Shown in pieces: positions 9,454 to 23,833 of a stretch of DNA of 43,791 nt (positions are counted from its first letter, which is position 1; the number at the start of each line of letters is the position of its first letter). The DNA comes from a virus. The position numbers were made by a program, and so were the translations under genes. The stretch is from the IMG/VR virus record IMGVR_UViG_3300035128_000007; one strand, given 5' to 3'. A model generated the notes under the pieces. The model did no database searches. It was given only the letters and a program-made list of their open reading frames with translations, and was not told the DNA's origin.

Positions 9454-9479
9454 TATTAAGCCTTAGAGAAAATTGGTCA

Positions 9480-9754: not shown

Positions 9755-9766
9755 CTGTGCGGAGCA

Positions 9767-10605: not shown

Positions 10606-11128
10606 TATCAAAATACTCCAGGTCGTCAAGAATAGCATCAAGGACGGATGCAATTCGCGAACTAGTGATCTCAGATAATTCACCAAGCACCATCCGCTTT
10701 AGCTCGAGATCACTGATCTGCGGGCGCTCGCTTTCACGGAGCTTCTGAAGCTCTGGCTTGATATCTTCCCAGTCTGGAAGTTCGGACTCTTCATCAGGCT
10801 CCGTAAATGGCACATATTTGAACGATTCCTCGATAACCTGTGCGCCTGTTGCGTCTGTTGCGTCTGCAAGTTGTGGCAATTCATTGGGGTGCTTATATGC
10901 ACCCGCAGACCCTGTGTCGTTATACTGGTCTTTCAGCGTCCAGCTAAACGGAGGCAACTCGCCATAATTGGTCGCCTCAACCTCGCCCCGCTCCTTCAAC
11001 TTGCTTACAGCCTTTGATACCTTGTTGGTGGGCTCGTCCAGATGCTCTGCTATCTCCTTCACGGTAGCCACGCTCAAATATCCCAGGGCATCACGTGCTT
11101 TCTGTAACATGCTTTTTTCAGTTTCCAT
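10595..11128 (-). CDS. Winged-helix DNA-binding protein with acidic C-terminal half
   Basis: METEKSMLQKARDALGYLSVATVKEIAEHLDEPTNKVSKAVSKLKERGEVE is a MarR/wHTH-like N-terminus. The C-terminus is D/E-rich. ATG 11128 overlaps the upstream stop (TAATG). Confidence 0.6.
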   Translation of the reverse strand: METEKSMLQKARDALGYLSVATVKEIAEHLDEPTNKVSKAVSKLKERGEVEATNYGELPPFSWTLKDQYNDTGSAGAYKHPNELPQLADATDATGAQVIEESFKYVPFTEPDEESELPDWEDIKPELQKLRESERPQISDLELKRMVLGELSEITSSRIASVLDAILDDLEYFDNDD

Positions 11129-11394
11129 TATTCCTTCTCCAACAAACAAACTTTAGGCCAATAAAGTCTTGACTTACGATTGCCTGGTTGCGTTACCAGG
11201 ACAATATAACTTTCATGGTCCCTGCCTAATCCACCGCCATAAGCACTGGTTGCGTTATATTTAATAATAAGCTCGTCTTCATTAGGCATTAATCCAGTCC
11301 ATATAACTTCCACGATAATGCCTCGTTTCGTCTTTTCATATCCTCCTGATTTGCTCGTCCATTTGACATGGTCACCTGCCTTAAATTTTCCCAT
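11128..11394 (-). CDS. Hypothetical protein (Tudor/SH3-like beta-barrel pattern)
   Basis: 88 aa. MGKFKAGDHVKWTSKSGGYEKTKRGIIVEVI... resembles the small Tudor-like domain family (DUF2945-like, from memory). Confidence 0.5.
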   Translation of the reverse strand: MGKFKAGDHVKWTSKSGGYEKTKRGIIVEVIWTGLMPNEDELIIKYNATSAYGGGLGRDHESYIVLVTQPGNRKSRLYWPKVCLLEKE

Positions 11395-11423
11395 TTCTTT
11401 CTGCCTCTATTTCTAACATTTGC

Positions 11424-11651
11424 TTAACGGCATTTTCTATTCCGATTCCTGAGTGACTCGTAATACTCAACAACACCAGGAGTAGTAATAAGAGATTGCA
11501 ACATATCAAACATTTCTACAGATATTTCTACCCCTATAGACTGCCAGCCATTTCTACTAAAGAACCATGTTCCAGCAGCAAATAATCCGCGATCTTCAGG
11601 CGCGCCAACACCAACTGAAATATACTGCTTGCCATTTCGTTTAGTAATCAT
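11424..11651 (-). CDS. Hypothetical protein
   Basis: 75-aa track ORF, co-directional with its neighbours, with an 11-nt overlap with the upstream gene. AT-rich. Confidence 0.5.
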   Translation of the reverse strand: MITKRNGKQYISVGVGAPEDRGLFAAGTWFFSRNGWQSIGVEISVEMFDMLQSLITTPGVVEYYESLRNRNRKCR

Positions 11652-11856
11652 GTTTTGGCTTCCTCACAGGCATAGACACGTGGCGTTCTGGTATTGAGAC
11701 CTCATAATCAACCATATATTTGTTATTTTCCGCGCGGTGCGAACCAATGCGTTCACCAATGATTCGAATCTTTTTCGCCAATTGCCTTGCTTCCACAATA
11801 TTCTCCGCCTTTATGACCGCATGTCCTTTTATCTCAACTTCATACGTTGGCATCAT
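11641..11856 (-). CDS. Hypothetical protein
   Basis: 71-aa track ORF. Its start overlaps the RusA stop (ATGA-type overlap at 11853-11856). Confidence 0.5.
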   Translation of the reverse strand: MMPTYEVEIKGHAVIKAENIVEARQLAKKIRIIGERIGSHRAENNKYMVDYEVSIPERHVSMPVRKPKHDY

Positions 11857-12305
11857 GGCTTCCTAACAGTGTGAGTGCATGGCATATCTTTCGCTGTGAC
11901 TGTTATGGCTACCCCAGGATTATCAGAATATCGCTTGCATATCCTCAAATCAGTTATCCTAGCGTCGTCTGTAATAACAATTCCGCTGATCGCATCTAGA
12001 GCGGCTTTTGCGATATTGTCTATATCTGGTTTCCCAGTGTGGCTTATAAACACTCCATGAGGCGTCACGAGTCTCTTTTTCCACTTCGGCCATGTATCAG
12101 GGTAAGGCATGTATGCCACGATTGTTACGTCCACTGGACAGTCAATCGGCTCCCTGCTTTTCATTTTTGCTTTGGCAACAACCTTTGCGGCCTCCTCCCA
12201 CTGCCTAGTTTTGATTGGAGTGTATGCGCGCCCTCTAGTAAAACGCGGGCGCCCCTTCCCTACAGGATCTCCATCTATCCTTAGAGTAATGGCAGTCATC
12301 TTCAA
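11853..12305 (-). CDS. rusA: RusA-family Holliday junction resolvase
   Basis: GDPVGKGRPRFTRGRAYTPIKTRQWEE..., GKPDIDNIAKAALDAISGIVITDDARITDL match conserved RusA motifs. Confidence 0.85.
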   Translation of the reverse strand: MKMTAITLRIDGDPVGKGRPRFTRGRAYTPIKTRQWEEAAKVVAKAKMKSREPIDCPVDVTIVAYMPYPDTWPKWKKRLVTPHGVFISHTGKPDIDNIAKAALDAISGIVITDDARITDLRICKRYSDNPGVAITVTAKDMPCTHTVRKP

Positions 12306-12529
12306 AGATATCCTTTGCCGTCACAATCAGGACAGACTGACTCTGGATTAGATCTTGATATGCCTCCTATCCGCTCATCAATAACACCAGTACCTTCACA
12401 TGTTTCGCATTCCGTATAATCTTCAAAAATTTGGCAGTTTATCCCACCGCAATCATTACACTCTGTGTGAGTAAGATCAGTTAAGGGACCGCGCCACGTT
12501 ACTAGTCCACCACATATTGAACATTTCAT
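12302..12529 (-). CDS. Zinc-finger protein with DnaJ-type CxxCxGxG repeats
   Basis: MKCSICGG...CNDCGG...CETCEGTG...CPDCDGKG. The internal ATG 12529 was chosen; the track start 12604 overlaps the upstream gene. Confidence 0.55.
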   Translation of the reverse strand: MKCSICGGLVTWRGPLTDLTHTECNDCGGINCQIFEDYTECETCEGTGVIDERIGGISRSNPESVCPDCDGKGYL

Positions 12530-12530
12530 A

Positions 12531-12713
12531 CTAATCCGATCCAAATATCTTGCACATTTCCTCAAACAGTTCCAGAATCTTCCGCTCCCTGTCAATAGGC
12601 TCAATTGTGGCTATCCTTATCCGCAAATTCCTGGCCATCGAGGCGAGCGTATTCAATTCCCTCTGTGCATGACTCATAGCGTCGTGGGCCGCGCGATAGT
12701 CTTCATTGCTCAT
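12531..12713 (-). CDS. Hypothetical protein (60 aa, helical)
   Basis: GAGGAGGGGatggtaATG. MSNEDYRAAHDAMSHAQRELNTLASMARNLRIRIATIEP... Confidence 0.5.
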   Translation of the reverse strand: MSNEDYRAAHDAMSHAQRELNTLASMARNLRIRIATIEPIDRERKILELFEEMCKIFGSD

Positions 12714-12936
12714 TACCATCCCCCTCCTCATAATATACACATGGTTTTTTCAATTCTTCTTTTCTGTTAATAAAACCTCCCTTCGGTTGTGGGGTCGAAG
12801 AAACAGGCGTCCAATACATCGAGGCAGGCAATTCCGTAATCACATATTCATACCTGCATACTCCGTCGCCGCCTGGGTGGAGCCTGCCATTCTTTGTTCG
12901 ATTCCATTCAGCATATATACACCCGTTACAGTTCAT
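12703..12936 (-). CDS. Hypothetical Cys-containing protein
   Basis: 77-aa track ORF MNCNGCIYAEWNRTKNGRLHPGGDGVCRYEY... with AGAGAGGTGAAGAT upstream of the ATG. Confidence 0.55.
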   Translation of the reverse strand: MNCNGCIYAEWNRTKNGRLHPGGDGVCRYEYVITELPASMYWTPVSSTPQPKGGFINRKEELKKPCVYYEEGDGNEQ

Positions 12937-13026
12937 ATCTTCACCTCTCTGTTTATCCTTATGACAATAACAGTCATTCGCTATATGATTCTTCAGAACA
13001 ACCGCCGAGGATTTACGCTTTCCGAA

Positions 13027-13323
13027 CTAGTATTCCCATTCCTTTCTTTCTGCCTTACATCCTTGTGATTCAAGCCAAGGAATCAATTTATCCTTGAAGC
13101 ATTTTGGGCATATATCGACTTTGTAATCTGTCCCCCATCCTTCTTCAGGATAAGTTTCTCCTTCTTTTTGCCTTACTGTTACCTCTACAACAGTTTCATT
13201 TACCTCATAAATAGAGCTATCCCACAACCCTTTTTTTGCTTCTGCTCCACACAAATCACATGTGGTTTTAGTCAAAACCTTTTGTTTCTTTGCTGGCACT
13301 TGGACTTCTTCATAATATCTCAT
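13027..13323 (-). CDS. Hypothetical zinc-ribbon-like protein
   Basis: 98 aa with a CDLCG ... CPKCF pair flanking a beta-rich core. Its start overlaps the upstream stop. Confidence 0.55.
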   Translation of the reverse strand: MRYYEEVQVPAKKQKVLTKTTCDLCGAEAKKGLWDSSIYEVNETVVEVTVRQKEGETYPEEGWGTDYKVDICPKCFKDKLIPWLESQGCKAERKEWEY

Positions 13324-13808
13324 ATTGATTTCTCCTTCTTAATACGTTTCACCGCAACCACCTTCTCCTTGCAATACTTTCGTTGCTCTTCCGACGAGAT
13401 GCCGCGGTACTTGATGGTTTCCTCGCATACCAGGCGGTACATATCTATCGGCTCTCCGCGCCACCTGCATCCATACTCCGTGGCCTCTACAACAAACTGA
13501 CGCTCCTTTGTCGTGAGCGTGAGAAACACTCTCAGAGCGGCCAAGAGACGCTCGTGGTAGGGTAGTATCCATCTGTGGCCCTGAGACCCAGCCAGCGGCG
13601 CCCTGCGCGGCCTCTCGTGTGAATACGGATCGCCCATCAAGCGGATAAACCACTGTGCTGCCTCTCTAGGCACCAACGGCATGGGCTCCGGCATCCTCCT
13701 TCCTCCTTCTCCATATGCCGAGAGATGCTCTGTGATCGTGTCTAGGACATCGGCTGGGCGCTGCTCCGCAGGCTTAGCCTTTGGGCGCTGGTCGTAGTCA
13801 GGCACCAT
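13320..13808 (-). CDS. Hypothetical protein
   Basis: 162-aa track ORF, preferred over the overlapping frame 13339..13653 (Arg/Gly-rich). No motif recognised. Confidence 0.55.
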   Translation of the reverse strand: MVPDYDQRPKAKPAEQRPADVLDTITEHLSAYGEGGRRMPEPMPLVPREAAQWFIRLMGDPYSHERPRRAPLAGSQGHRWILPYHERLLAALRVFLTLTTKERQFVVEATEYGCRWRGEPIDMYRLVCEETIKYRGISSEEQRKYCKEKVVAVKRIKKEKSI

Positions 13809-14160
13809 ACAACCAAGATTCCCAGCGCTCCTCTAGACAGTCAAGTTCTTCCATCCATCTTTCTGGATTTACACCATCATGGATGTCCTGGATATCAACC
13901 AATAACTCATCAATACCCTTGCCTATCTCCTTTCCAAAGAGATCCACTGCGCCTAATTTACGTAACAATACCTCTACCCCTATCCCCTCGTACTCCGGGT
14001 TATATAGTTCGTCTGGTATTAATGCACCGATCGGGCATTTCAATCTATCCGGGGTTCGATACATACCGACATATTCATCGCTAATTGCTGGGCGTGGCAT
14101 GCCGCGCATATGCTCCCGCACGAGACGGAACACGTCCTCGGCCTGGAGATACTCAGTCAT
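13798..14160 (-). CDS. Hypothetical protein
   Basis: 120-aa track ORF MTEYLQAEDVFRLVREHMRGMPRPAISDEY... Its ATG overlaps the stop of the 40-aa ORF upstream. Confidence 0.55.
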   Translation of the reverse strand: MTEYLQAEDVFRLVREHMRGMPRPAISDEYVGMYRTPDRLKCPIGALIPDELYNPEYEGIGVEVLLRKLGAVDLFGKEIGKGIDELLVDIQDIHDGVNPERWMEELDCLEERWESWLYGA

Positions 14161-14275
14161 GATATTTCCCCTCCTTTATTTCGAGGTACTTGACCAATAT
14201 GTCAGTCAGCATGTCAACTGCTTCCTCCGGGCCTTTCTGCTTCTGCTTTGCTGGGACTCTTTCGTAGTCAGCCAT
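14153..14275 (-). CDS. 40-aa ORF ending in KYLEIKEGKYHD, hand-called
   Basis: MADYERVPAKQKQKGPEEAVDMLTDILVKYLEIKEGKYHD. It overlaps both neighbours. The C-terminal 11 residues are identical to those of gene 14473..14877 although most codons differ at the third position. Confidence 0.45.
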   Translation of the reverse strand: MADYERVPAKQKQKGPEEAVDMLTDILVKYLEIKEGKYHD

Positions 14276-14480
14276 TCTCATTGTCTCCTATTGGGCCATC
14301 TATAATCGCCCACCATTCTGCATCTTCGTAGTAATCCCAAGCCGTTAATTCTCCTTGAATGATTCTATACACATCTTCTTTAGGCGAATAGATGAGAATC
14401 CTTTCCTTATCGCTTGGTTTTTGTTGCGCATCCCTATGCACCCAGCATAGGTGTTTAACCACCAAATAATTATCAACCAT
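14268..14480 (-). CDS. Hypothetical protein
   Basis: 70-aa track ORF MVDNYLVVKHLCWVHRDAQQKPSDKERILIYSPKEDVYRII... Its start overlaps the upstream stop. Confidence 0.55.
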   Translation of the reverse strand: MVDNYLVVKHLCWVHRDAQQKPSDKERILIYSPKEDVYRIIQGELTAWDYYEDAEWWAIIDGPIGDNENG

Positions 14481-14877
14481 GATACTTGCCTTCTTTTATC
14501 TCAAGATACTTAGTTGGGTGAATGAGATAGTCCAGGCTTCCGCGGAACTGTTTGTATCCGTTGCTTGGAGGAACCTTCGACATCAGGAACTTTGACTCCT
14601 GCACATGCAGGAAATAGTTCCTCCAGTTCTCCAATGATGGCAGGCCCTTCTTCCAGAGCGCCCTGATACGCGCCTGGCGCTGCTTGTTTATCTCCTTGGC
14701 ACACATCATGGGCGGCACCATCATATCGTTGTAGAGCCTCTGTATGGCATCATACGGGACAACAACATCGTTCCGCTTAGGCTTCTCGTCTCCCCATATC
14801 ACTTGGCCGCCAAGGGCTGCCACGGCACGCTCGAGGTGGTGCTTAACCCTATTCATCTGCCTGTTCGGCATCCCCAA
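14473..14877 (-). CDS. Hypothetical protein (possibly replication-associated C-terminal domain)
   Basis: 134 aa. RIRALWKKGLPSLENWRNYFLHVQESKFLMSK...FRGSLDYLIHPTKYLEIKEGKY resembles C-terminal domains seen on phage replication or DnaD-like proteins. This is recollection only. Confidence 0.5.
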   Translation of the reverse strand: MGMPNRQMNRVKHHLERAVAALGGQVIWGDEKPKRNDVVVPYDAIQRLYNDMMVPPMMCAKEINKQRQARIRALWKKGLPSLENWRNYFLHVQESKFLMSKVPPSNGYKQFRGSLDYLIHPTKYLEIKEGKYHG

Positions 14878-15067
14878 AAAGGCCCACCGCTTTCTCTATA
14901 CACCGGCGATATACCCATGCAATACTGCTCTCATAATCATATTCTTCTCCAATCTCTACCAAAGCACCGACATACTGGCCGCATTCGTCACATTTCTGTT
15001 CTCTTGCCCAAGACGTGTTACCGATAATATCTGCCACGTCTTTGGCGGTCGCGGTTTCCTTGTCCAA
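14849..15067 (-). CDS. Hypothetical protein; start uncertain (TTG)
   Basis: 72-aa track ORF. The frame stays open and coding-looking upstream to 15181 without a canonical start codon. Confidence 0.45.
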   Translation of the reverse strand: MDKETATAKDVADIIGNTSWAREQKCDECGQYVGALVEIGEEYDYESSIAWVYRRCIEKAVGLFGDAEQADE

Positions 15068-15117
15068 TGCTGCCAGTTTTTCCCATATTTCTTTTCTGTA
15101 CGGGTGGGAGTGTACTT

Positions 15118-15372
15118 TTAGGTGCTGTTCCCACCATTTATCGGCAACTTCTCGTATTTGGCCTTGCGGTCTTTCATGATTTTATTGGCAAACAACACGA
15201 CGCCACCCACTAACAGGATCGCTAGCGCCAGGGCAAAGCTACCCCAGAAAGGCGCAGTCACCCACCACCACGACCAATCGATATAGCCGGTAAGTTTGAG
15301 GGTCACGAACACCACGCCGAGAAGGCCGATCACGCTGATACCGCTACTGCTTGAACTAGAACTGTTACTCAT
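15118..15372 (-). CDS. Integral membrane protein (about 3 TM) with N-terminal poly-Ser
   Basis: MSNSSSSSSSGISVIGLLGVVFVTLKLTGYIDWSWWWVTAPFWGSFALALAILLVGGVVLFANKIMKDRK... Confidence 0.6.
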   Translation of the reverse strand: MSNSSSSSSSGISVIGLLGVVFVTLKLTGYIDWSWWWVTAPFWGSFALALAILLVGGVVLFANKIMKDRKAKYEKLPINGGNST

Positions 15373-15465
15373 CGTATTTATCCTCGTTGAAAATTCCTAA
15401 CAAGCGCATAAACTCGGACGCTAAAACCGGCGCTTCGCTTGGTTTTGCGTCGGTTATGCTTGTCG

Positions 15466-15717
15466 TTATGCCGCAACAACCCGAGCATGCACAAACGGGC
15501 GGAATGCTCTCGCTGCCGCGAGCGCAGCGTCGGCGGCTTCCCGCATGCCAAATCGCTGCGCGTTGCACGGGTCGCATACCCTCCCGGGGTCGCTCTGCTC
15601 TACATCGCAGGCCCAGACGCCAGGCTCTAGCTCTACAATATATTCCGCGTCTCGCGCGTCTCTTCTGGCGTCCGCCGTCGTGTACCACGGCATAACAAAG
15701 CCCTCCAACCGACCCAC
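15466..15717 (-). CDS. Hypothetical protein in a GC-rich segment; start uncertain (ATG 15693 also possible)
   Basis: 83-aa track ORF ...MPWYTTADARRDARDAEYIVELEPGVWACDVEQSDPGRVCDPCNAQRF... I preferred it over the Arg-rich overlapping frame 15365..15688. Confidence 0.5.
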   Translation of the reverse strand: MGRLEGFVMPWYTTADARRDARDAEYIVELEPGVWACDVEQSDPGRVCDPCNAQRFGMREAADAALAAARAFRPFVHARVVAA

Positions 15718-15746
15718 GCCGTCGGCGCTTATCTCTGGCTTAAAGT

Positions 15747-15771
15747 CCTCAGCCGGCGCGGGCGGCTGAGG
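15747..15771 (-). promoter_or_regulatory. Perfect 9-bp GC-rich hairpin between two genes (attenuator or RNA-stability element?)
   Basis: CCTCAGCCG(15747-55) ggcgcgg CGGCTGAGG(15763-71). On the minus strand it is followed only by ACTTTAAG, a weak U-tract, so it is not a clear terminator. Confidence 0.35.
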
Positions 15772-15777
15772 GCAACG

Positions 15778-16026
15778 TTATGCACAAGACGCCGAAACAG
15801 GCTCTGTCGCAGGAAACAGTCTCCTGTCAATTTCGTTTCTGTCCACCGTGAGGGCAACAATCTCAACGGCGTCAAAATCTCCAGTATCGATGTTGCTCTG
15901 GCGCGCATCGTGCAAGTAGCCGGGATTGTCGCTGTACTCAGGTCCGCTCATACATGCCAGCGCCTCCGGCGCGTACTGACCAGGGTAGGCGCATTTGCGT
16001 TGAGCCATCAGAATGTAAATGTTCAT
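15778..16026 (-). CDS. Hypothetical protein
   Basis: 82-aa track ORF with GAGAGGTGAACA immediately upstream of the ATG. It is the first gene after the terminator that follows the Cro-like gene. Confidence 0.6.
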   Translation of the reverse strand: MNIYILMAQRKCAYPGQYAPEALACMSGPEYSDNPGYLHDARQSNIDTGDFDAVEIVALTVDRNEIDRRLFPATEPVSASCA

Positions 16027-16057
16027 TGTTCACCTCTCAATATAGTAAGTCCCTGTT

Positions 16058-16088
16058 AAAACAGCCGGCCACCCATCGGGCGACCGGC
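16058..16088 (-). terminator. Intrinsic terminator after the Cro-like gene
   Basis: Minus strand GCCGGTCGCCC-gat-GGGTGGCCGGC (11-bp stem including 2 G-T pairs; plus-strand coordinates 16064-16088) followed by TGTTTTAAC. It lies 26 nt after the stop at 16114. Confidence 0.55.
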
Positions 16089-16113
16089 AATCCCAGTTGC
16101 TGGGGAGGAGTCC

Positions 16114-16296
16114 TCATTCCTGCTGAGCCGTCAGGAAATCGTGTAACTTCTGGATCTTCGTCACGCCAGGATCCCTAATCCTTCCTTGCGTGACCGCGTT
16201 GAGCCAATCACGCTCTACGCCAGCACCCTTCGCGATCTGCTCCCTTGTCAGGGCGCTGCGCAGGACTAATTTTCGCACTTCGGTTAGTAAGTTCAT
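16114..16296 (-). CDS. Cro/XRE-like small HTH regulator (first leftward gene)
   Basis: MNLLTEVRKLVLRSALTREQIAKGAGVERDWLNAVTQGRIRDPGVTKIQKLHDFL has an HTH pattern (LTREQIAKGAGV..WL). It lies directly downstream of the leftward promoter. The track start GTG 16305 would be leaderless. Confidence 0.6.
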   Translation of the reverse strand: MNLLTEVRKLVLRSALTREQIAKGAGVERDWLNAVTQGRIRDPGVTKIQKLHDFLTAQQE

Positions 16297-16311
16297 CTTC
16301 GTCACGATTCC

Positions 16312-16339
16312 ATTGTAGTAGTATTCTCCCCCTTGTCAA
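16312..16339 (-). promoter_or_regulatory. Leftward early promoter
   Basis: Minus strand TTGACA (16339-16334), 16 nt, TACAAT (16317-16312). The predicted TSS is near 16305, only about 9 nt before ATG 16296. Confidence 0.6.
16314..16324. promoter_or_regulatory. Operator half of an 11-bp inverted repeat (ATACTACTACA), left copy
   Basis: tgtagtagtat is the reverse complement of atactactaca at 16393-16403. It overlaps the -10 of the leftward promoter. A third TACTAC lies at 16352-16357. Confidence 0.5.
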
Positions 16340-16365
16340 GTAATATCTTCCTACTACGATAATGC

Positions 16366-16394
16366 TTGACATGGCTGTGCTGTGGTACTATTAT
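16366..16394 (+). promoter_or_regulatory. Rightward early promoter
   Basis: TTGACA (16366-16371), 17 nt, TATTAT (16389-16394). It lies about 30 nt upstream of the first rightward gene (ATG 16430). Confidence 0.7.
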
Positions 16395-16403
16395 ACTACT
16401 ACA
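16393..16403. promoter_or_regulatory. Operator half of an 11-bp inverted repeat (ATACTACTACA), right copy
   Basis: It overlaps the -10/+1 of the rightward promoter and is the perfect reverse complement of 16314-16324. Confidence 0.5.
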
Positions 16404-16429
16404 GAGAAGGAAAACAGACGAGGCCAGAC

Positions 16430-16633
16430 ATGAAGACCACCTTAACAAACAACGAAATGGTTAAATTTTTTTACGAGACCGACGGAGGAGATTCCGGATA
16501 CATAAACGCTAAAAATATCGATACCGCCAGGGAAATCTTTTTCGGCGAACATCCGGATATAGATCCGCAGTGCGCCGGCCTGTGGTCTCCAGATGACAGT
16601 GAATATCCAGATGATATTGGAGACAGACCATGA
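16430..16633 (+). CDS. Small strongly acidic early protein (67 aa)
   Basis: MKTTLTNNEMVKFFYETDGGDSGYINAKNIDTAREIFFGEHPDIDPQCAGLWSPDDSEYPDDIGDRP has about 15 D/E against about 5 K/R by my count. I preferred ATG 16430 over the track's GTG 16382, which lies inside the promoter. Confidence 0.6.
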   Translation: MKTTLTNNEMVKFFYETDGGDSGYINAKNIDTAREIFFGEHPDIDPQCAGLWSPDDSEYPDDIGDRP

Positions 16634-17022
16634 CACGCCTACTAACAGCACTTATCGCCGCATCCATCCTGCTGGGATGCGCCACCCAGAACGTCGCCGA
16701 CCTGCGGGCCCGCACAGACAACCAAGCATCATGGACAGTCTCCGCCCCTGTGCGGGATGTCTATCGTACATATAAGGAACACATCAGGGCTGGGCTCCCA
16801 CAAGGGTTCCTCTGGAGCGGGCGCCCAGTGGTCTCTGGAGACTTCTACGGAGATTCTGGCGAGTTCACCGTACGTCTCCAAGGAAACGCTATCGGATCCC
16901 CTGTATACCTATACACCACAATGGTTGAGGCCCCCGGCGGGACAGACGTCACTGTCTCATGGTCCAGAGGATGGAAATCGACAGCTATGGAGCTGCGCGG
17001 GCTTGATATTGCTGGAGGTTAA
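16630..17022 (+). CDS. Lipoprotein (lipobox LLGC)
   Basis: MTRLLTALIAASILLG|CATQNV is a classical signal peptidase II signal. 130 aa. ATGA overlap with the upstream gene. Confidence 0.75.
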   Translation: MTRLLTALIAASILLGCATQNVADLRARTDNQASWTVSAPVRDVYRTYKEHIRAGLPQGFLWSGRPVVSGDFYGDSGEFTVRLQGNAIGSPVYLYTTMVEAPGGTDVTVSWSRGWKSTAMELRGLDIAGG

Positions 17023-17027
17023 CGACA

Positions 17028-17255
17028 ATGAAAGATTTTACTTTGATTGAGCTGCTGATTGTTATTTGGATTATTGGTATTTTAGCATGGGTATTTTTAC
17101 AGTTTGGAAATAAAGAAAAAGAGAGGGTTGAGTTTATGGAGTACTGCCAATCGAAAGGGTCAACCGCTGAAGACTGTAAGTGGGAGTGGAAGCGATTAAA
17201 GAACGGGGAAAAGGCAGATACCATGTTTATCATACCGCTGCCTATGCGTTTCTAA
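17028..17255 (+). CDS. Type IV pilin/pseudopilin-like small protein (N-methyl domain motif, no -1 Gly)
   Basis: MKD-FTLIELLIVIWIIGILAWVF matches the prepilin FTLIEL hydrophobic helix with Glu at +5. It is only 75 aa, with CQSKGSTAEDC (C-x9-C). GGAGG lies 9 nt upstream. AT-rich. Confidence 0.65.
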   Translation: MKDFTLIELLIVIWIIGILAWVFLQFGNKEKERVEFMEYCQSKGSTAEDCKWEWKRLKNGEKADTMFIIPLPMRF

Positions 17256-17292
17256 TACGCATTGTTAGGCAAGAGGATTTCTGGAGGATCAC

Positions 17293-17409
17293 ATGAACAA
17301 AATGCGAGACGCTCTCTGGTTCGCATCGATCATGCGGGACGGGTGCTGCGGATGCCTGCGGCAGGCTCGGCGTAGCACACGCCGGTTTTTCAAACTTCTA
17401 CGGAGTTAA
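17293..17409 (+). CDS. 38-aa basic Cys-rich micro-ORF, hand-called
   Basis: GGAGGatcac ATG. MNKMRDALWFASIMRDGCCGCLRQARRSTRRFFKLLRS. It fills the gap between 17255 and 17415. Confidence 0.3.
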   Translation: MNKMRDALWFASIMRDGCCGCLRQARRSTRRFFKLLRS

Positions 17410-17414
17410 AGATT

Positions 17415-17792
17415 GTGAATAACCTACAAAAGCTATTACGATTGGCCGACCTCATTGAAGATAGAGACGATCTTGATCAAGATAGTTCTTCCCCTTCTTT
17501 CTCACCCGCCCTGGCATTTTCTGGCCGCCATTGCGTGGTCCGCACTTTTTCAGCTGGGGTCCATTTAGGGGTTGTTGAGTCTGTTGATGGCAGGGCTGTT
17601 CTTTTGCGTGACTCTCGGCGTCTATGGAAATGGGGCGGGGCTTTCACTTTGTCTGAAGTAGCCTTACATGGTATTGATCCGGATAAAAGCCGCATATCTG
17701 TCGAGTCACCAGTGATCATGCTGACGGAAGCAATCGAACTAATACCAACATCGGAAAAGGCTCGCGAGACGTTTGATGCTTGCCATGAGTAA
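17415..17792 (+). CDS. Hypothetical protein (conserved-looking phage protein)
   Basis: 125 aa, GTG start. GRHCVVRTFSAGVHLGVVESVDGRAVLLRDSRRLWKWGGAFTLSEVALHGI... is a pattern I have seen in phage early regions. No function known to me. Confidence 0.6.
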   Translation: MNNLQKLLRLADLIEDRDDLDQDSSSPSFSPALAFSGRHCVVRTFSAGVHLGVVESVDGRAVLLRDSRRLWKWGGAFTLSEVALHGIDPDKSRISVESPVIMLTEAIELIPTSEKARETFDACHE

Positions 17793-18090
17793 TCGACTAG
17801 ACAGCACTAACTGCGATGGCGACGGCTCCGGCTACGGCTCCGGCTACGGCGGCGGCGACGGCTCCGGCTACGGCTCCGGCTACGGCGGCGGCGACGGCTC
17901 CGGCTACGGCTCCGGCTACGGCTCCGGCTACGGCTCCGGCTCCGGCTACGGCTCCGGCGACGGCTTCGGCTCCGGCTTCGGCTCCGGCTTCGGCTCCGGC
18001 GGCTCCGGCTACGGCTACGGCTCTGGCTACGGCTCCGGCTTCGGCTCCGGCGACGGCTACGGCTTCGGCGACGGCTACGGCAACGGCTAG
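17785..18090 (+). CDS. Gly/Ser/Tyr(Phe)-repeat low-complexity protein (101 aa)
   Basis: MSNRLDSTNC then 91 residues built only from G,S,Y,F,D,N (DGSGYGSGYGGG x2, GSGYG..., GSGFG...). The ATG overlaps the upstream stop (ATGA). Third codon positions are almost all C. Confidence 0.55.
   Translation: MSNRLDSTNCDGDGSGYGSGYGGGDGSGYGSGYGGGDGSGYGSGYGSGYGSGSGYGSGDGFGSGFGSGFGSGGSGYGYGSGYGSGFGSGDGYGFGDGYGNG
17815..18087 (+). repeat. GC-rich tandem repeat array (6/12/36-nt periodicity)
   Basis: gacggctccggctacggctccggctacggcggcggc occurs twice in tandem (17821-17856 and 17857-17892). It is followed by degenerate ggctccggctac/ggcttc units. One 60-nt line hand-counts to about 80% G+C. Confidence 0.9.
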
Positions 18091-18094
18091 ATTT

Positions 18095-18301
18095 GTGACA
18101 TGGGACGAGATGCTCGACTCAGCCTTGGCTTTACAGGCTGCTATCGAGAGACAGATCCAAGAGATTCAGGAACCGCGGGAAGGTGTCCGTCACACGACAG
18201 ACCAGGCCGTTGCGCAGCTCATCGCTATACGGCGCTGGGAAATGCTTAATAAAGCAGTGTCTGGCGTAATTAGACAACTGGAGGATATTTGTGATGAATG
18301 A
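18095..18301 (+). CDS. Small helical protein; start uncertain (GTG 18095 or ATG 18110), frame continuous with the +1 frame of the repeat
   Basis: (V)TWDEMLDSALALQAAIERQIQEIQEPREGVRHTTDQAVAQLIAIRRWEMLNKAVSGVIRQLEDICDE. This is the tail of track ORF 17816..18301. No clear SD. Confidence 0.45.
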   Translation: MTWDEMLDSALALQAAIERQIQEIQEPREGVRHTTDQAVAQLIAIRRWEMLNKAVSGVIRQLEDICDE

Positions 18302-18527
18302 TCGTGATCTGATGATTGCAGCAGCGGACGTACTTGAGGAACAGGCTGACGCCTTCCAGAATATTTCCGGGATCAATGTAAGCTGGTATCAGAAGCCGCT
18401 CTCTAGACTGGGATCTCAATACAGTGAGACGGATATAGCAGGCTTAGTGACTACATACCGCAGCATGCGGCAGACTGTCGCCATCCTCAAAGCAAGAGCC
18501 TGTCAAATAGCCGCGCTAAGGAGGTAA
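18294..18527 (+). CDS. Paralog family member 1 (77 aa)
   Basis: MNDRDLMIAAADVLEEQADAFQ... shares the MND.D(A)DLM..AAD opening with the next gene. Confidence 0.6.
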   Translation: MNDRDLMIAAADVLEEQADAFQNISGINVSWYQKPLSRLGSQYSETDIAGLVTTYRSMRQTVAILKARACQIAALRR

Positions 18528-18530
18528 CAC

Positions 18531-18734
18531 ATGAACGACTATGACGCAGATCTTATGAGCCGCGCCGCCGACATTATTAACTTGGTCGCGGAGGAGTCAA
18601 AGGCTTCCCAAGTCGTCAATGGAGAATGGAAGGTTACTCACGATTATCAATCTGCCATCGCCAATTACATCGAACTAAAAGCTCTGGCAAAAGCATTGAG
18701 AAGGAGGGCTAAAGGTGACTCCACAGGAATATAG
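18531..18734 (+). CDS. Paralog family member 2 (67 aa)
   Basis: MNDYDADLMSRAADIINLVAEESKASQVVNGEWKVTHDYQSAIANYIELKALAKALRRRAKG. Confidence 0.65.
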   Translation: MNDYDADLMSRAADIINLVAEESKASQVVNGEWKVTHDYQSAIANYIELKALAKALRRRAKGDSTGI

Positions 18735-19125
18735 CGACCTCGCTACAGAGGAATTTGAGAAGGCCCATCCAAACGAGGCCAAGGGCACAGCCAATTACTT
18801 CTCTTGGAAGGCCGCATGGCTTGCGGCAACTTGCGCAGAGAAGGACGCGCAAATCGCTATTCTAGCAGATCTTATGATCCGCGCTGCCGACATTATTAAC
18901 ATGACCGCAGAGGAGCTAAAGGCTTTCCATGTCGTCCGTGGTCAATGGAAGCTTACGCACGATGAGAAATCTATCATCGGAAGCTATTCCCAGTACATCC
19001 GGTTATATAGGCACCGCTATAAGCTAAAAGCTCTGGCAAAAGCATTGAGAAGGAGATCTATCGCCATTCTAAATGGAGAAATCGCCCGCCTCCGAAATGA
19101 CATCGACGACTTGAGAGACGCTTGA
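18715..19125 (+). CDS. Paralog family member 3 with N-terminal extension (136 aa)
   Basis: AAGGAGGGctaaag GTG. The second half, LADLMIRAADIINMTAEELKAFHVVRGQWKLTHDEKS...LKALAKALRRRS, parallels member 2. Confidence 0.65.
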   Translation: MTPQEYSDLATEEFEKAHPNEAKGTANYFSWKAAWLAATCAEKDAQIAILADLMIRAADIINMTAEELKAFHVVRGQWKLTHDEKSIIGSYSQYIRLYRHRYKLKALAKALRRRSIAILNGEIARLRNDIDDLRDA

Positions 19126-19129
19126 AATC

Positions 19130-19942
19130 ATGAATGACAAAGAACGCCAGCTCGCACCACCAACCGACATCGACATCCAGGCTGTCATTGCTTCCGCTGT
19201 CCAGAGCGGCAACCTGGAGGTGGTAAACCGCCTCATGGAGGTTAGAACACAGCTCCGGGATGAATGGACGCGCGGGCAGTACTACGCCGCGATGAACGCG
19301 CTACAGGCGGAAATGCCAGTCATCCAAAAGGACACCGAGGTTTTGAACAAGGATAAGAGGTCGGTTCGCTACCGATACGCCAAGCTGGACTCAATTATCC
19401 GTCAGGTCGGTCCTCTAATCACGAAACACGGGTTTTCATGGCAGACGAGATCCATACCACAAGACGGCGTTCTCGTCTCTGAATGCATCGTTACCCATCA
19501 TGCCGGGCACTCCGAGACCGCGCGCTTCACAACCATCATTGATGAGAGAGCCTATATGACTGACTCGCAGAAGGGTGGGTCCGCATCGACATTCGGAAAC
19601 CGATACGCCTTTTGCGCCATCTTTGGCATTGTCACTGGGGACCAGGACGACGATGCCCAGTCCTTTGACCGCGGCTGCGACAATCTTCTCACGATGATGG
19701 AGGTCGTTCGGGATAGCTGGCCATCAATTGCGGCGATCAAGGAGGGAATCGAGACAGGGAACCTACATATCGCTGTGGAGGCATGGGCCGAACTCACAAA
19801 CGATGAAAAGAAAGACCTTTGGGTCGCTCCAACCAAGGGGGGAATATTCACGACCGCCGAGCGCGCCGCCATGCATTCTGATGAATGGCATGCTATCAAT
19901 CAGGAAACGGAGAGTGATAGTGACGAACAGGCACAGGCTTGA
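19130..19942 (+). CDS. erf: ERF-family single-strand annealing protein
   Basis: ALQAEMPVIQKDTEV...VRYRYAKLDSIIRQVGPLITKHGFSWQ...THHAGHSE...GGSASTFGNRYAFCAIFGIVTGDQDDDA is the typical ERF core. Confidence 0.8.
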   Translation: MNDKERQLAPPTDIDIQAVIASAVQSGNLEVVNRLMEVRTQLRDEWTRGQYYAAMNALQAEMPVIQKDTEVLNKDKRSVRYRYAKLDSIIRQVGPLITKHGFSWQTRSIPQDGVLVSECIVTHHAGHSETARFTTIIDERAYMTDSQKGGSASTFGNRYAFCAIFGIVTGDQDDDAQSFDRGCDNLLTMMEVVRDSWPSIAAIKEGIETGNLHIAVEAWAELTNDEKKDLWVAPTKGGIFTTAERAAMHSDEWHAINQETESDSDEQAQA

Positions 19943-20117
19943 CCTGGAAAGAATCATCACATGGGCTGACCAGTTGTCATATGCGTCAGGGCCTATACTA
20001 GCTAATGATGATTGTATTCAAATGCGCGACGAGGCGCTTTCCAGCATGCATCGAATCGGTCGCGCTTTACACGCTCAGGCTGCTGCGGCAGCTGAGTCTA
20101 TCGACAAAGAGAGGTGA
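19920..20117 (+). CDS. Hypothetical protein (65 aa), GTG start
   Basis: GGAGAG, 5 nt, GTG 19920. VTNRHRLDLERIITWADQLSYASGPILANDDCIQMRDEAL... This is the tail of track ORF 19728..20117, whose upstream part overlaps erf. Confidence 0.45.
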   Translation: MTNRHRLDLERIITWADQLSYASGPILANDDCIQMRDEALSSMHRIGRALHAQAAAAAESIDKER

Positions 20118-20250
20118 TCTATGGAACCGCATGACGATACACCACGAATGCCATACGAGCACCATAATGTAATGGACGAAGACGACTACCTGATCAAGGT
20201 CGACCACCCTGAAGAGTCTTTCTATGATCATTGGATATGGTTGATGCGTC

Positions 20251-20517
20251 ATGACTCTCACTGAGTACAAGGAAATCATCCGAGACTCTGGGTGCATCAT
20301 CTGTAGCGGTCCCGCTGAGTTACATCACCCGCGGGCGTTCGCTGGAATGGGACAGAAGTCGCCAGAGGGGCTATTGATCCCTCTTTGCCATAATCATCAC
20401 AATGGAGGCATCCCAGGTGTCTCCTTCCATGCCGACAAGACGTTATTCGAGAGAAACTATGGAACCGAGCCGTTTCTTCTGCACAAAACCTGGATCCGCT
20501 TCATAGCGGAGCTATAG
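20251..20517 (+). CDS. Ref-like HNH nuclease (RecA-dependent nuclease family-like)
   Basis: SGCIICSGPAELHHPRAFAGMGQKSPEGLLIPLCHNHHNG...FHADKTLFERNYGTE parallels the P1 Ref core (C..C...HH...G...K...PLC..HH...HADG), as I recall it. Confidence 0.5.
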   Translation: MTLTEYKEIIRDSGCIICSGPAELHHPRAFAGMGQKSPEGLLIPLCHNHHNGGIPGVSFHADKTLFERNYGTEPFLLHKTWIRFIAEL

Positions 20518-20972
20518 TGGCTGAGTTCTACATGCAAAAGGGTTTAGGCGGGCACTTCGACTGCATTAGCGAAGAAGGCGTCGAATACGCAAACCGGATC
20601 AAGGTAGGCACTGTCGTCCTGGTCAATGTGCGCGTCCCGCAAAACGCCAGGTTTCACCGAAAACTAATGGCACTGTTGAGGTTTGCATATGACGCTTGGG
20701 AGCCAATTGCAGAGGGCGCCGGATGGCAGAAGTCCTTCAAAAGGTTCCGGGATGATTTGATCATTTTGGCCGGATATTACCAAGATGTGGTTGACCTGGA
20801 AGGGGACATCAGGATGGAGGCGCAGTCCCTTGCTTACGATGAATGCTCAGCAGAACTGAAGGAACAGATTTACTCAGACGTGCTGGACGTTATTTCATCG
20901 CATGTGTTTTCTGGGAAATATTCTCCAGAGAAGCTGGATGAGCTGACAGAGCGATGGGTAGGGTTTCTTTAG
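20517..20972 (+). CDS. DUF1367-like phage protein
   Basis: VPQNARFHRKLMALLRFAYDAWEP...FKRFRDDLIILAGYY matches my recollection of DUF1367 (PRN..FHRKFFALL...FR.D..I.AGY). Confidence 0.5.
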   Translation: MAEFYMQKGLGGHFDCISEEGVEYANRIKVGTVVLVNVRVPQNARFHRKLMALLRFAYDAWEPIAEGAGWQKSFKRFRDDLIILAGYYQDVVDLEGDIRMEAQSLAYDECSAELKEQIYSDVLDVISSHVFSGKYSPEKLDELTERWVGFL

Positions 20973-21105
20973 CCACCGCCGGCCCAGTGGCTTGTAACGC
21001 CGGCAGCGAATGACAGGGTCATGCGACTCATGAGAACTCCGCCCTGGGCGTTCGCCGTTTGCCCACACGAGACGTGGGCCCCTTTACCGAGGACAATATA
21101 TTGCC

Positions 21106-21576
21106 ATGTCCAGGATACCGTTAAATAAGATCAACGATGTCGCATCCAAATATCTGCACATTGGGAAAAACCGGTGCAAAGTTAAGTTCAGCACAGAGGC
21201 TGATGTTGTAAGGATACGCGGGATGGTTGGCGCTATCGCTCATTACTGCGATAAGCATAACCTATCAAACATCGCGGAGTTTTTCGAAAGCTCGAGCGAC
21301 CACCTAAAAGAGTGTGGCCGCCAAATTGTTCACCGTTACATACATAGATGTCTCGAGGACCCTGGAGAAGTTAAACATGTGGAGAATGTCTGCAAGGCCC
21401 TTAACATATCTCCCAACGCATTCCTAACGCGCATGCAGAAGGCTCGACAGCCTAATTCTCGCATCGCGATGAAAGCGGTTGATGAACCACCACCGTCTCC
21501 GCATGAGTTCCACGAAATGCTCAAGATGATGGCGGTGCGTGACTCAGTGCCAATTGTATGGGATCCGGAGGTATAA
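21106..21576 (+). CDS. Hypothetical protein
   Basis: 156-aa track ORF after a 133-nt gap. No motif recognised. Confidence 0.55.
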   Translation: MSRIPLNKINDVASKYLHIGKNRCKVKFSTEADVVRIRGMVGAIAHYCDKHNLSNIAEFFESSSDHLKECGRQIVHRYIHRCLEDPGEVKHVENVCKALNISPNAFLTRMQKARQPNSRIAMKAVDEPPPSPHEFHEMLKMMAVRDSVPIVWDPEV

Positions 21577-22648: not shown

Positions 22649-23833
22649 CTATACGACCGTAATGGTGCGCGGATTCGTCGGCACCGATATTGCCCTGTCT
22701 GCTGATAGGACTGTGATTGCTCTTGAGGATGATGGCACTGTGATCAACCTCGGGTGATTAGTGAAGTCTGCATCAACAAGAGGGTCCGTAAACCCTATGT
22801 TGATGGGCATATCATCTGCCTGGAACGGAGTATGGCCTCCAGACATCGATATAGTGATCGGCATGTCTCCAGTGGAGACGGTAATAGCCGGATCAGACAT
22901 CGATATAGTGACCGGCATATCTCCTGGGGAGACTGTAATAGCCGGATCTGTAAACCCTATAGATATCGCAAGATCTGCAATATCAACACTGGCCGTCTCT
23001 ATTGAGAGAGCAGAGATTAAAGGTACATCTACGCTCGCAATAATGTTAAGTGCGAACTGCTCGCCAGCTTCGACAATTACGCTGAATGCTTCGTCGTGTG
23101 CAGCGTACTTGCCGACCTCGTCGTATACATCAAGGTCATCAACCTTCGTCAGGGTGTCATTCGGGTCATTGATATCGAAAACACGAAGACCCGACTCGCT
23201 ATGTGCCCCCTCTTCAAATTTGGCTTTTACATTATATGTACCTGGCGTTACATCGAACCTTATCTGAATAGTGTCGTCAGGGTACGGATGACACTGCGCT
23301 TGATATAACGATGAATCAGTTGTCCCGGACACAGGCGTCGGGAAAAACGCTACTGTTACTTCTTCAGTGCCATCCTTTGTTATTCTATCGTGATCATGAG
23401 CCCACCAATAATCTTGGGCTGAATCCAGGTAGTCTTGAGGAAATCCTGACGCTCCTTCCCCAAAGTTCATTCGAATCGGCAGGACATATCCAACGCCGCC
23501 AGACGTATTCGAATAACCGCTTAGCGAATTATGTGCGCTTACTCGGTAGTAATACCTCCCACCTATATCTAGTCCAGAATCCTCATAACTGTATGGACTA
23601 GTACCAGCTTGTATTGTGTCTACAGATGACCAGCTTTCTTGGTCTAATGACCTCTCCAGCAGGAAGTCGTCAACGCCTAAGTCATCATGCGTCCAGTGAA
23701 TTGTTACGGCGGAAGTAGATTCAGTAACAACTTTGGTGACGACCGGATCGTTTGGCGGGTCGCCCTCCTCCCATATAGCACCAGCCCCTTCTGGTTCTAT
23801 CCCTTCTATCGGTACATAGTCTTCTAGTCCCAT
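22649..23833 (-). CDS. FN3 plus malectin-like carbohydrate-binding protein with C-terminal repeats
   Basis: AVTIHWTHDD...YYYRVSAHNSLSGYS is FN3-like. SSLYQAQCH...GTYNVKAKFEEGAHSESGLRVFDIN...LDVYDEVGKYAAHDEAF resembles the malectin domain. Then DPAITVS(P/T)GDMP(V/I)TISMS x2 and R.I(T/S)V x4. Confidence 0.6.
   Translation of the reverse strand: MGLEDYVPIEGIEPEGAGAIWEEGDPPNDPVVTKVVTESTSAVTIHWTHDDLGVDDFLLERSLDQESWSSVDTIQAGTSPYSYEDSGLDIGGRYYYRVSAHNSLSGYSNTSGGVGYVLPIRMNFGEGASGFPQDYLDSAQDYWWAHDHDRITKDGTEEVTVAFFPTPVSGTTDSSLYQAQCHPYPDDTIQIRFDVTPGTYNVKAKFEEGAHSESGLRVFDINDPNDTLTKVDDLDVYDEVGKYAAHDEAFSVIVEAGEQFALNIIASVDVPLISALSIETASVDIADLAISIGFTDPAITVSPGDMPVTISMSDPAITVSTGDMPITISMSGGHTPFQADDMPINIGFTDPLVDADFTNHPRLITVPSSSRAITVLSADRAISVPTNPRTITVV
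22841..22948 (-). repeat. Tandem 54-nt repeat x2 inside gene 22649..23833
   Basis: agacatcgatatagtgatcggcatgtctccagtggagacggtaatagccggatc against agacatcgatatagtgaccggcatatctcctggggagactgtaatagccggatc (a few mismatches). Confidence 0.85.

Follow-up and report, generated by a model that had tools for sequence, protein, structure and literature searches.

The stretch of DNA analyzed here, the 43,791-nucleotide (nt) virus record IMGVR_UViG_3300035128_000007 of IMG/VR (hereafter, the window), carries a gene for a Gly/Tyr-rich repeat protein that overlaps the end of an upstream gene of the DUF6948 family. These two genes, the tandem DNA array within the second of them, and the open reading frame (ORF) that follows are located as listed below.

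17415..17792, plus strand: DUF6948 gene, the first gene of the cassette, 125 amino acids (aa), Pfam PF22253, E = 3.5e-26
ATG 17785..TAG 18088-18090, plus strand: Gly/Tyr repeat gene, 101 aa, in which the leader MSNRLDSTNC is followed by an acidic (G-X)n array of 91 residues
17818..18089, plus strand: tandem DNA array, for which Tandem Repeats Finder (TRF) gave a period of 12 (GGCTACGGCTCC), 22.4 copies, and a score of 335
18095..18301 (start GTG 18095 or ATG 18110), plus strand: neighboring ORFan outside the cassette, 63-68 aa, labelled helical in a first-pass annotation of this DNA

The DUF6948 gene starts with GTG 17415, and a Shine-Dalgarno (SD)-like GGAG lies 10 nt ahead of this codon. The start codon of the repeat gene, ATG 17785, overlaps the stop codon of the DUF6948 gene, TAA 17790-17792 (ATGAGTAA), and ATG 17776 is present as an alternative in-frame start. 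The 91-residue core contains 48 Gly, 17 Ser, 13 Tyr, 7 Asp, 5 Phe, and 1 Asn residues. The fractions of Gly, Ser, Tyr, Asp, and Phe are.53,.19,.14,.08, and.05, respectively, and those of Gly, Ser, Tyr, and Asp in the pooled family are.49,.17,.15, and.12. Gly alternates strictly with Ser, Tyr, Asp, Phe, or Asn save for three irregularities (GGG, GGG, and GG), and the TAG codon stands directly at the array end, with no residue after the array. All 18 aromatic residues of the core (13 Tyr and 5 Phe) have Gly on either side, which amounts to 18 G-[Y/F]-G triplets in 91 residues. The net charge of the core is -7, and Lys and Arg are both absent. The leader, the residue set, the 18 Gly-flanked aromatic residues, and two exact 36-nt units had been described in the first-pass annotation, and this description is correct.

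The repeat protein had neither a signal peptide nor a lipobox context, and it gave no match in PHROGs at E = 0.01 or better. AlphaFold2 returned a predicted local distance difference test (pLDDT) score of 38 and zero secondary structure for it. A survey covering low-complexity regions (LCRs) from prokaryotes and phages reported that aromatic residues are heavily under-represented in them and that the largest phage LCR has 115 aa (PMC6821194). By these figures, a 91-residue, 20% aromatic region that fills 90% of a protein is unusual.

The same two-gene arrangement was found in many other phages. Tblastn with the window DUF6948 protein retrieved 17 GenBank phage records, and a scan of IMG/VR identified at least 587 viral contigs encoding a DUF6948 relative. 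The 145 loci analyzed were drawn from the best 80 of these contigs, from GenBank, and from a collection of species-representative genomes (55 loci), and the sets include some near-duplicates (e.g., L021/L025, L062/L063, L081/L084, and L005/L129). In 131 of the 145 loci, a same-strand G-X ORF directly followed the DUF6948 gene (82/90 phage loci and 48/55 genome loci), and several of the exceptions were contigs cut at this point. The ORF started between -33 and +40 nt from the DUF6948 stop, usually with an overlap of 4-17 nt, and in most complete cases the array formed its C-terminal end with zero residues beyond. The window locus has all of these features, namely an upstream DUF6948 gene, a start that overlaps its stop, a leader followed by (G-X)n, and a single Gly codon.

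The carriers were binned to Alpha-, Beta-, and Gammaproteobacteria, Firmicutes, Bacteroidota, Chloroflexi, Planctomycetes, Spirochaetes, Chlorobi, groups of the Candidate Phyla Radiation (CPR), and others. Cultured phages with the cassette include the Pectobacterium phages Koroua, Ymer, Abuela, Amona, Taid, Pappous, and Sabo, as well as Ralstonia phage NK-7, Dickeya phage Setonix, Iodobacter phage phiPLPE, and Vibrio phage IKEMa6-1. The gene next to DUF6948 in NK-7 encodes a 137-aa "fibroin heavy chain-like protein" (MKRWHKPSGSGSGSGYGSG...), and that in Koroua encodes 89 aa (MSKLIKPEKYGSGYGDGSG...). The closest relative of the window locus, L093 from a Phenylobacterium metagenome-assembled genome (MAG), has a 73% identical DUF6948 protein; its junction, FDACHE*/ATGAGTAA, is the same, and its leader, MSNGDSTAG, is homologous. 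The shared junction and leader indicate that ATG 17785 is the conserved start, with ATG 17776 as a possible alternative. No near-identical DNA was found among GenBank phages, an exact search with 39 nt of the unique leader of the window hit 0 viral and 0 metagenome contigs, and no contig was found for P0122, a DUF6948 protein 99% identical to that of the window.

Comparison of these loci at the sequence level shows the repeat ORF to be a real gene of 101 aa, probably translated on its own, which takes the second place in a DUF6948 cassette widely distributed among tailed phages and prophages. The first-pass annotation had stated that no phage early protein of this type is known to have been characterized, and this agrees with our searches: none was found in the literature, and Pfam, PHROGs, NCBIfam, and PADLOC contain no named family for it. 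PADLOC and NCBIfam gave no match for any of six genes tested, and Pfam gave only DUF6948 for the partner protein. Literature queries for DUF6948, DUF7666, or "fibroin heavy chain-like" together with phage returned nothing, the cassette was absent from the results of broader queries, and the repeat gene is not mentioned in the paper on the Ymer genus. The entries DUF6948 (PF22253) and phrog_18306 are the nearest that the databases hold. The upstream gene of the window is a clear member, and the phrog_18306 profile contains both repeat and domain (a Gly-Tyr repeat at 53-158 and DUF6948 at 151-235), so that the association is latent in the databases. However, these entries come with no function, paper, or description of two genes, and the window encodes the two parts by distinct genes that overlap, the repeat gene being the downstream one.

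The reading frame of the array was then considered. All three sense frames are free of stop codons through the array, two antisense frames are nearly open, and the +1 ORF at 17816..18301 runs for 161 aa without interruption. The open sense frames and this ORF had been reported in the first-pass annotation and are both present, but the three-frame openness, to which it had attached meaning, is uninformative, since it follows from the alternation of Gly. The +1 frame is free of stops because Gly is encoded at every second codon and X is Tyr, Ser (TCN), Asp, Phe, or Asn, and a stop in the +2 frame is possible only after GGT. Among the relatives, 71/82 arrays had an open +1 frame and 41/82 an open +2 frame.

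An ATG ahead of the array was found in the G-X frame in 115/131 loci (~88%) and in the other two sense frames in 31/131 and 25/131 (~20%). Depending on the lineage, arrays are all-GGC, all-GGG, all-GGT, or all-GGA, with X codons ending in C or T, and the G-[S/Y/D] peptide is constant throughout, whereas the peptides of the other frames vary: AT/AP in the window, AM in L002 and L005, and others, such as GT and VT, elsewhere. Among the one-step neighbors of the codons TAC, TCC, and GAC, only those for Ser, Tyr, Asp, Asn, Phe, and His are common at X, and Pro, Thr, Ala, and Val are nearly absent; this restriction points to selection on the protein. In-frame fusions of the G-X repeat were found with DUF7666 in nine proteins and with DUF6948 in P0065 and L069. 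Start codons, codon variation across lineages, in-frame fusions, and residue choice all mark the G-X frame as the coding frame, as judged from these sequences. The ORF is thus a genuine gene for a Gly-[Tyr/Phe]-Gly polymer, as the first-pass annotation had proposed, and its G-X frame is conserved among relatives. The occurrence of a stop exactly at the array end was not used as an argument for this frame, since the other frames also stop within 0-6 codons (median).

The G-[S/Y/D] repeat was also observed fused N- or C-terminally to other small domains, namely DUF7666/PF24703, phrog_10432, phrog_11232, phrog_20392, and several without a family (examples are P0009, P0030, P0046, P0080, P0085, P0086, P0111, L011 2309-2836, and L028 ~2780-3146). 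The repeat behaves as a promiscuous module among phage proteins. The gene upstream of P0002 was considered as a divergent DUF6948 gene, and this was unsupported (hhalign probability 0.4, E = 0.14).

At the DNA level, the array has a sub-period of 6 nt and is by far the strongest one that TRF detected in the window. An exact 36-nt unit (DGSGYGSGYGGG) occurs at 17821 and 17857, and the longest exact internal repeat spans 69 nt (at 17818 and 17854). The GC content of the 60-nt ruler lines over the array is 0.72-0.78, whereas the window averages 0.499 (sd 0.075) and has just 4 lines at or above 0.72. The array is therefore GC-rich, as had been noted before, and the earlier value of about 80% G+C is slightly high. 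In the window array, Gly is encoded by GGC in 48/48 cases and Ser by TCC in 16/17, and the GGC share of Gly codons in the long ORFs of the window is 26%. By our own arithmetic, independent draws would give 48/48 GGC with a probability of ~1e-28, a figure to be read with the caveat that the codons are not independent, the units being copies of each other. In the arrays of the family compared with the adjacent DUF6948 genes, GGC made up 81% vs 45% of Gly codons, TCC 72% vs 13% of Ser codons, TAC 83% vs 42% of Tyr codons, and GAC 85% vs 47% of Asp codons, and the median per-array entropy of Gly codons was 0 bits. The codon uniformity within arrays is attributable to repeat turnover, which homogenizes the units. 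The array RNA (17803-18090, 75% GC) was much less structured than its dinucleotide shuffles (z = +5.19), and 200/200 shuffles folded at least as well. A single codon set without a complementary partner may also have been selected to keep the mRNA open.

These features bear on the alternative that the array acts mainly as a nucleic acid, for example as an unstructured triplet-periodic RNA or a DNA iteron platform for the Sm-like protein described below, with translation being secondary. Such a role would fit the synonymous homogeneity and the unstructured RNA, as expected of a single-stranded platform; it would also fit the predicted Sm-like fold of the upstream protein, since proteins of this kind bind single-stranded RNA, and the frequent failure of gene callers to call the repeat ORF. 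On the other hand, the nucleotide unit differs among lineages while the G-[S/Y/D] peptide persists, a start at the DUF6948 stop is far more frequent in the G-X frame than in the others, only six residues are kept at X, the repeat is fused in frame to globular domains, its length changes are always in frame, and the array gave no match in Rfam. We regard this alternative as unlikely.

Missed and misread copies of the gene were seen in several records. In the Chlorobiaceae phage CV-1-33, gene_25 (MT192033.1; L005 2761-3027) is annotated in the wrong frame as MAMAMALAMA..., and in Iodobacter phage phiPLPE (EU876853.1; L008 1173-1409), the ORF MSRLVNNKNGDGSGYG... between gp84 and gp83 has no coding sequence annotation. 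Only 4 stand-alone arrays were present among the 120 best database matches. Two further irregular arrays were observed. In L142 (~1543-1750, a MAG contig), the G-X reading switches in mid-array to WLWLWLWRWRW..., a frameshift that is probably an assembly or sequencing error, and the array of L139 is all-GGA with Ala, Tyr, or Asp at X and runs into a masked stretch of N.

Assembly was examined as a source of the array itself or of its length. Logan contig SRR11696381_43750, which is 100% identical to positions 7415-17847 of the window, stops 30 nt into the array; the contigs of L094, L095, and L096 and 14/80 of the IMG/VR loci likewise end in the array, and the 69-nt exact repeat lies inside it. 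These observations are what the collapse or expansion of a simple repeat would produce. However, equivalent arrays are present in the finished genomes of at least a dozen cultured phages sequenced in different laboratories and years (EU876853 to PQ008975), so that the existence of the array is not in doubt, and the window array contains no repeated k-mer at k >= 77, which means that a large-k assembler can resolve it. An artefact is therefore very unlikely. Short-read contigs often ended inside arrays, 30-150 nt past the DUF6948 stop (e.g., L014, L016, L019, L023, L030, and L037). Since assemblies break at the arrays, an excess of phage contig ends falls at the repeat gene, and these breaks together with the missed and mis-framed ORFs lead phage gene catalogues to under-count the family.

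Comparison of closely related phages showed how the array changes. L021 and L026 have flanks with 100% and 99.3% identity and arrays of 74 and 118 aa, respectively, a difference of 132 nt. In eight cultured Ymer-type phages, the repeat genes encode 53, 67, 73, 73, 73, 83, 85, and 89 aa; the arrays of this genus range from 162 to 270 nt, and every difference is divisible by 6 nt. Amona and Ymer are 100% identical in the DUF6948 gene and the downstream flank, and their arrays (67 and 73 aa) differ in length and order. All seven Pectobacterium isolates share the leader MSKLIKPEKYG (...PERYG in Setonix), and the Ymer-type proteins end in GEG, with the exception of Taid. These comparisons, which amount to the survey of repeat number in related phages proposed in the first-pass annotation, show that array length does vary and always in frame: units are gained, lost, and reshuffled, and array length and order change faster than the flanks. 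Since arrays differ between 100% identical flanks, selection keeps composition and periodicity rather than sequence. Such conservation is typical of disordered low-complexity regions.

The first-pass annotation had offered three readings of the array and the ORF behind it: two separate genes, a +1-shifted fusion, and slippage in repeat length that toggles which N-terminus is attached to the helical domain. The stop codon of the ORFan at 18095..18301 overlaps the ATG of the following gene (18294), which is preceded by GGAGG, and the ATG at 18110 is preceded by a weak SD-like GGGA. The protein libraries searched comprised 5.8 billion clusters at 90% identity and 1.84 billion representatives at 50% identity of ~15 billion proteins. 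The lone match of the ORFan in the word-indexed database was the ORFan itself, called as 63 aa by the source. A HMMER scan of the 1.84 billion representatives added only two long proteins; their matches were split over 6 and 3 separate segments and were taken as compositional, and tblastn against phages gave no match. In 61 related loci, the genes behind the G-X gene show no relationship to each other and include no counterpart of the ORFan, even in the closest relative L093, in which the 79-aa G-X gene is followed by a 96-nt gap and an unrelated 164-aa gene (with an ASCH-like N-terminus by eye). The frame offsets of the next gene across relatives are evenly spread (22/21/18). A frame stays open for at least 40 codons beyond the G-X stop in 14/65 loci (+1) and 10/65 loci (+2), and the run-on into the ORFan can be explained in the same way, since tight gene packing yields such cases by chance. 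Two relationships of the ORFan were considered and rejected: a resemblance by eye to the post-repeat tail of P0002 (RFVTW..SAL vs KRVVATW..SAL), for which BLASTP gave E = 0.61 over 8 residues, and paralogy with three small downstream ORFs (E = 0.48, not significant).

A single product across the repeat and the helical ORF would require a programmed +1 frameshift at GGC-TAG or translation of the Ala-Thr/Ala-Pro frame from ATG 17816. The unbroken +1 ORF and the weakness of the SD-like GGGA are in its favor, as is the existence of database proteins with a C-terminal domain after the repeat, e.g., P0002. Nevertheless, the helical ORF has no homologues and does not follow the array in any relative, the next-gene frames are even, the tail of P0002 is unlike it, and the peptide of the alternative frame is not conserved. 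Judging from the sequence, a shift of the Gly tRNA from GGC to GCU would also mispair at the middle position. A fusion is thus highly improbable. The toggling of the N-terminus, or of the gene as a whole, by phase variation is even harder to reconcile with the data and can be considered extremely unlikely. Repeat number does differ between near-identical phages, as such a switch would need, but the periods of 6, 9, 12, and 36 nt are all multiples of 3, so that slippage alters the length and never the frame, and the length variants (132 nt in L021/L026; 162-270 nt in the Ymer genus) all differ in 6-nt multiples. The reading as two separate genes is the right one of the three, and the ORFan looks like an ordinary, tightly packed, lineage-specific gene in its sequence. 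The real partner of the repeat gene is the upstream gene, which the first-pass annotation had overlooked, and not the downstream ORF.

The structure of this upstream partner was predicted with AlphaFold2 from a 49-sequence alignment (mean pLDDT 92.2). The model has an Sm-type N-terminal helix followed by a bent five-stranded beta-barrel (strands 39-44, 49-58, 61-72, 98-103, and 106-111), with two additions: an insert that includes a helix and separates strand 3 from strand 4, and a helix at the C-terminus. In a Foldseek search of PDB, the top 50/50 hits were Sm/LSm proteins, with a probability of 1.00 (one 0.98), template modeling (TM) scores on the target of up to 0.76, and E ~1e-3. The invariant or near-invariant residues of DUF6948 include R43, H50, R68, R69, and W73, and some sources name homologues "snRNP-like". 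These results predict that DUF6948 is an Sm/LSm-like beta-barrel, which is probably oligomeric.

Sm and Hfq proteins bind single-stranded RNA. The overlap of the repeat-gene start with the DUF6948 stop suggests translational coupling, by which both proteins would be produced at a constant ratio. In this view, the repeat protein would form a disordered and acidic chain of the multivalent "sticker-spacer" kind, in which 18 aromatic stickers stand at even intervals, and it could serve as a detached low-complexity tail or a multivalent ligand for the Sm-like partner with its invariant Arg/His/Trp surface. The two proteins would then form a multivalent network or a condensate-like particle on RNA or single-stranded DNA (ssDNA) in the early recombination/replication phase. 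Across loci, the cassette lies in the early region beside genes of the Erf, NinB, RecE or exonuclease, SSB, and ParB types. We put forward this split "Sm core plus low-complexity tail" mechanism, acting on RNA or ssDNA in early infection, as a tentative inference. The broader idea that tailed phages carry a minimal condensate or ribonucleoprotein (RNP)-granule system, in which an Sm-like ring protein is paired with a Tyr-rich polymer from a separate, translationally coupled gene, the valence of the polymer (set by array length) being quickly tuned by in-frame turnover, is more speculative still, and we consider it doubtful at this stage.

Alternatively, the repeat protein may work alone against the host, as an anti-defense decoy, an acidic mimic of nucleic acid, or an inhibitor of a host factor, with DUF6948 as its chaperone or regulator. 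The position of the cassette in an accessory-rich early region beside recombination genes, the charge of -7 with no Lys or Arg, the arms-race-like diversification of arrays between otherwise identical phages, and the joining of the repeat to several unrelated small phage domains would be consistent with such a role. The spread of the cassette from Proteobacteria to Firmicutes, Chloroflexi, and CPR-binned contigs argues against a narrow host target, PADLOC and the named families gave no match, and the tight, ancient pairing with one partner gene (~90% of loci) points to joint action. An independent anti-host function therefore appears unlikely.

Several known systems resemble the cassette in part. 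The Hfq proteins of Moraxellaceae combine an Sm-fold core with a repetitive low-complexity region, and their repeat contains Phe (GGFGGQ-type). In Acinetobacter and Moraxella, this region is a long, repetitive, glycine-rich C-terminal extension (PMC5663733). It differs from the repeat of the cassette in that the tail is fused C-terminally to the core, whereas the cassette repeat is a separate protein, rich in Tyr and Ser as well as Asp, acidic, and strict in its G-X period. In addition, these proteins have a bona fide Hfq core, and DUF6948 has no detectable sequence similarity to Hfq or Sm. Certain eukaryotic Sm/LSm proteins also have low-complexity tails, such as the RG tails of SmB/D1/D3 and that of LSm4. 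Together with the Moraxellaceae Hfq and the FUS-type domains described next, they are the closest precedents for the proposed mechanism.

The first-pass annotation had likened the repeat to [G/S]Y[G/S] arrays, low-complexity domains of the FUS/EWS/TAF15 type that were reportedly described by Kato et al. 2012, and this likeness is real at the level of composition. Aromatic residues are numerous in both, lie at even distances, and have Gly or Ser on either side; the repeat protein may also be disordered, to judge by its single-sequence model, and its gene is paired with that of a predicted Sm-type protein. Unlike the FUS-type domains, it lacks a Gln/Asn/Pro-rich context (0 Gln and 1 Asn), contains 8% Asp with a charge of -7, has a higher aromatic content (20%), and keeps a strict two-residue periodicity over 91 residues; the two are not homologous. 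Silk fibroin (Gly-X)n likewise alternates Gly with a small or aromatic residue, but its X is Ala, Ser, or Tyr and the protein is enormous and secreted, whereas X of the repeat protein includes Asp, Ala is almost absent, there is no signal peptide, and no sign of fibers was seen. Sulphur globule proteins (SGP, PF17228), keratin-associated high-Gly/Tyr proteins, and plant glycine-rich proteins share the Gly/Tyr-rich composition but are extracytoplasmic and structural. For relatives of the repeat protein, Pfam matches to SGP, the keratin head domain, and the TrAA12 tail were weak, compositional, and below the curated cut-offs.

A likeness to Gly-rich microcins had also been suggested. It extends to a small, Gly-rich product, but phages with the cassette have Gram-negative as well as Gram-positive hosts, neither a double-glycine motif nor a hydrophobic signal is present in the leader MSNRLDSTNC, and no export or immunity function turned up among the scanned neighbors. 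Among the ten ORFs scanned at 16630-21576, no exporter was found; five gave phage-type matches only (phrog_18306/DUF6948, Erf, and NinB/DUF1367) and five gave no match. What is already known in kind is the Sm core with a low-complexity tail and the Tyr-rich low-complexity domain, and the cassette itself is widespread, unstudied, and poorly annotated.

Overall, the best explanation, which we consider likely as a whole, is that of a real cassette gene whose array turns over in frame and whose product would act in the joint mechanism inferred above. The following points weigh against it. The repeat ORF of the window was not called by the gene caller of the source and is absent from the database of 5.8 billion clusters. 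The copy number of the window array is unconfirmed, and in an independent assembly of this phage at k=31, the contig ends after the first 30 nt of the array. The extreme synonymous homogeneity could also reflect a function at the DNA or RNA level. The low pLDDT of the repeat protein was obtained from a single sequence and provides weak support for disorder. The Sm-like assignment is a predicted structure with a Foldseek E of only ~1e-3, and a sequence-profile search of PDB with DUF6948 gave no Sm, LSm, or Hfq chain (best E 0.5, Pop6), so that the assignment holds at the level of the fold. Fusions of the repeat with DUF6948 are rare; the 120 closest homologues of DUF6948 include none.

In this tailed phage, the locus is part of the rightward early region, where small ORFs follow the repeat gene and precede two genes with family matches.

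19130-19942, rightward early region: Erf, family match
20517-20972, rightward early region: NinB/Orf, family match

The three tandem small ORFs at 18291-18527, 18531-18734, and 18715-19125 share a DLM..AAD(I/V)(I/L)N..AEE motif and gave no family matches. The second and third encode proteins that are 58% identical over 65 aa (E = 3e-21), and the first is weakly related (E = 1e-3). Upstream of the cassette, the plus-strand ORF at 17028-17255 encodes a 75-aa protein that starts with MKDFTLIELLIVIWIIGILA, an N-terminus like that of type IV pilins or pseudopilins minus the usual Gly before Phe, which is odd for a phage early region. The plus-strand ORF at 16630-17022 encodes 130 aa with a lipoprotein-type signal (MTRLLTALIAASILLGC...) and no family match; it may be a moron or a gene of the superinfection-exclusion type. 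A terminator-like hairpin (17367-17385) is located between this region and the DUF6948 gene. Farther downstream, a 54-nt tandem duplication at 22840-22962 (2 copies with 81-90% matches, in two overlapping TRF rows) sits in a minus-strand ORF of 394 aa (22649-23833), near large minus-strand ORFs.

The repeat gene is thus conserved beside DUF6948 in ~90% of 145 loci, yet it is missed or mis-framed in several records. The family exemplifies selection on composition rather than on sequence, and its single-codon arrays, along with an mRNA of unusually little structure, prompt a testable question on how codons are chosen in such genes. If the proposed condensate system is true, the cassette would be the counterpart, in bacterial viruses, of FUS-type low-complexity domains and LSm-driven granules, with the grammar split over two genes, Tyr being on one chain and the conserved Arg/His/Trp on the other. 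If the split mechanism holds, it would offer a compact and tractable two-gene system for the cooperation of an aromatic low-complexity polymer with an Sm fold and for condensates in early infection.

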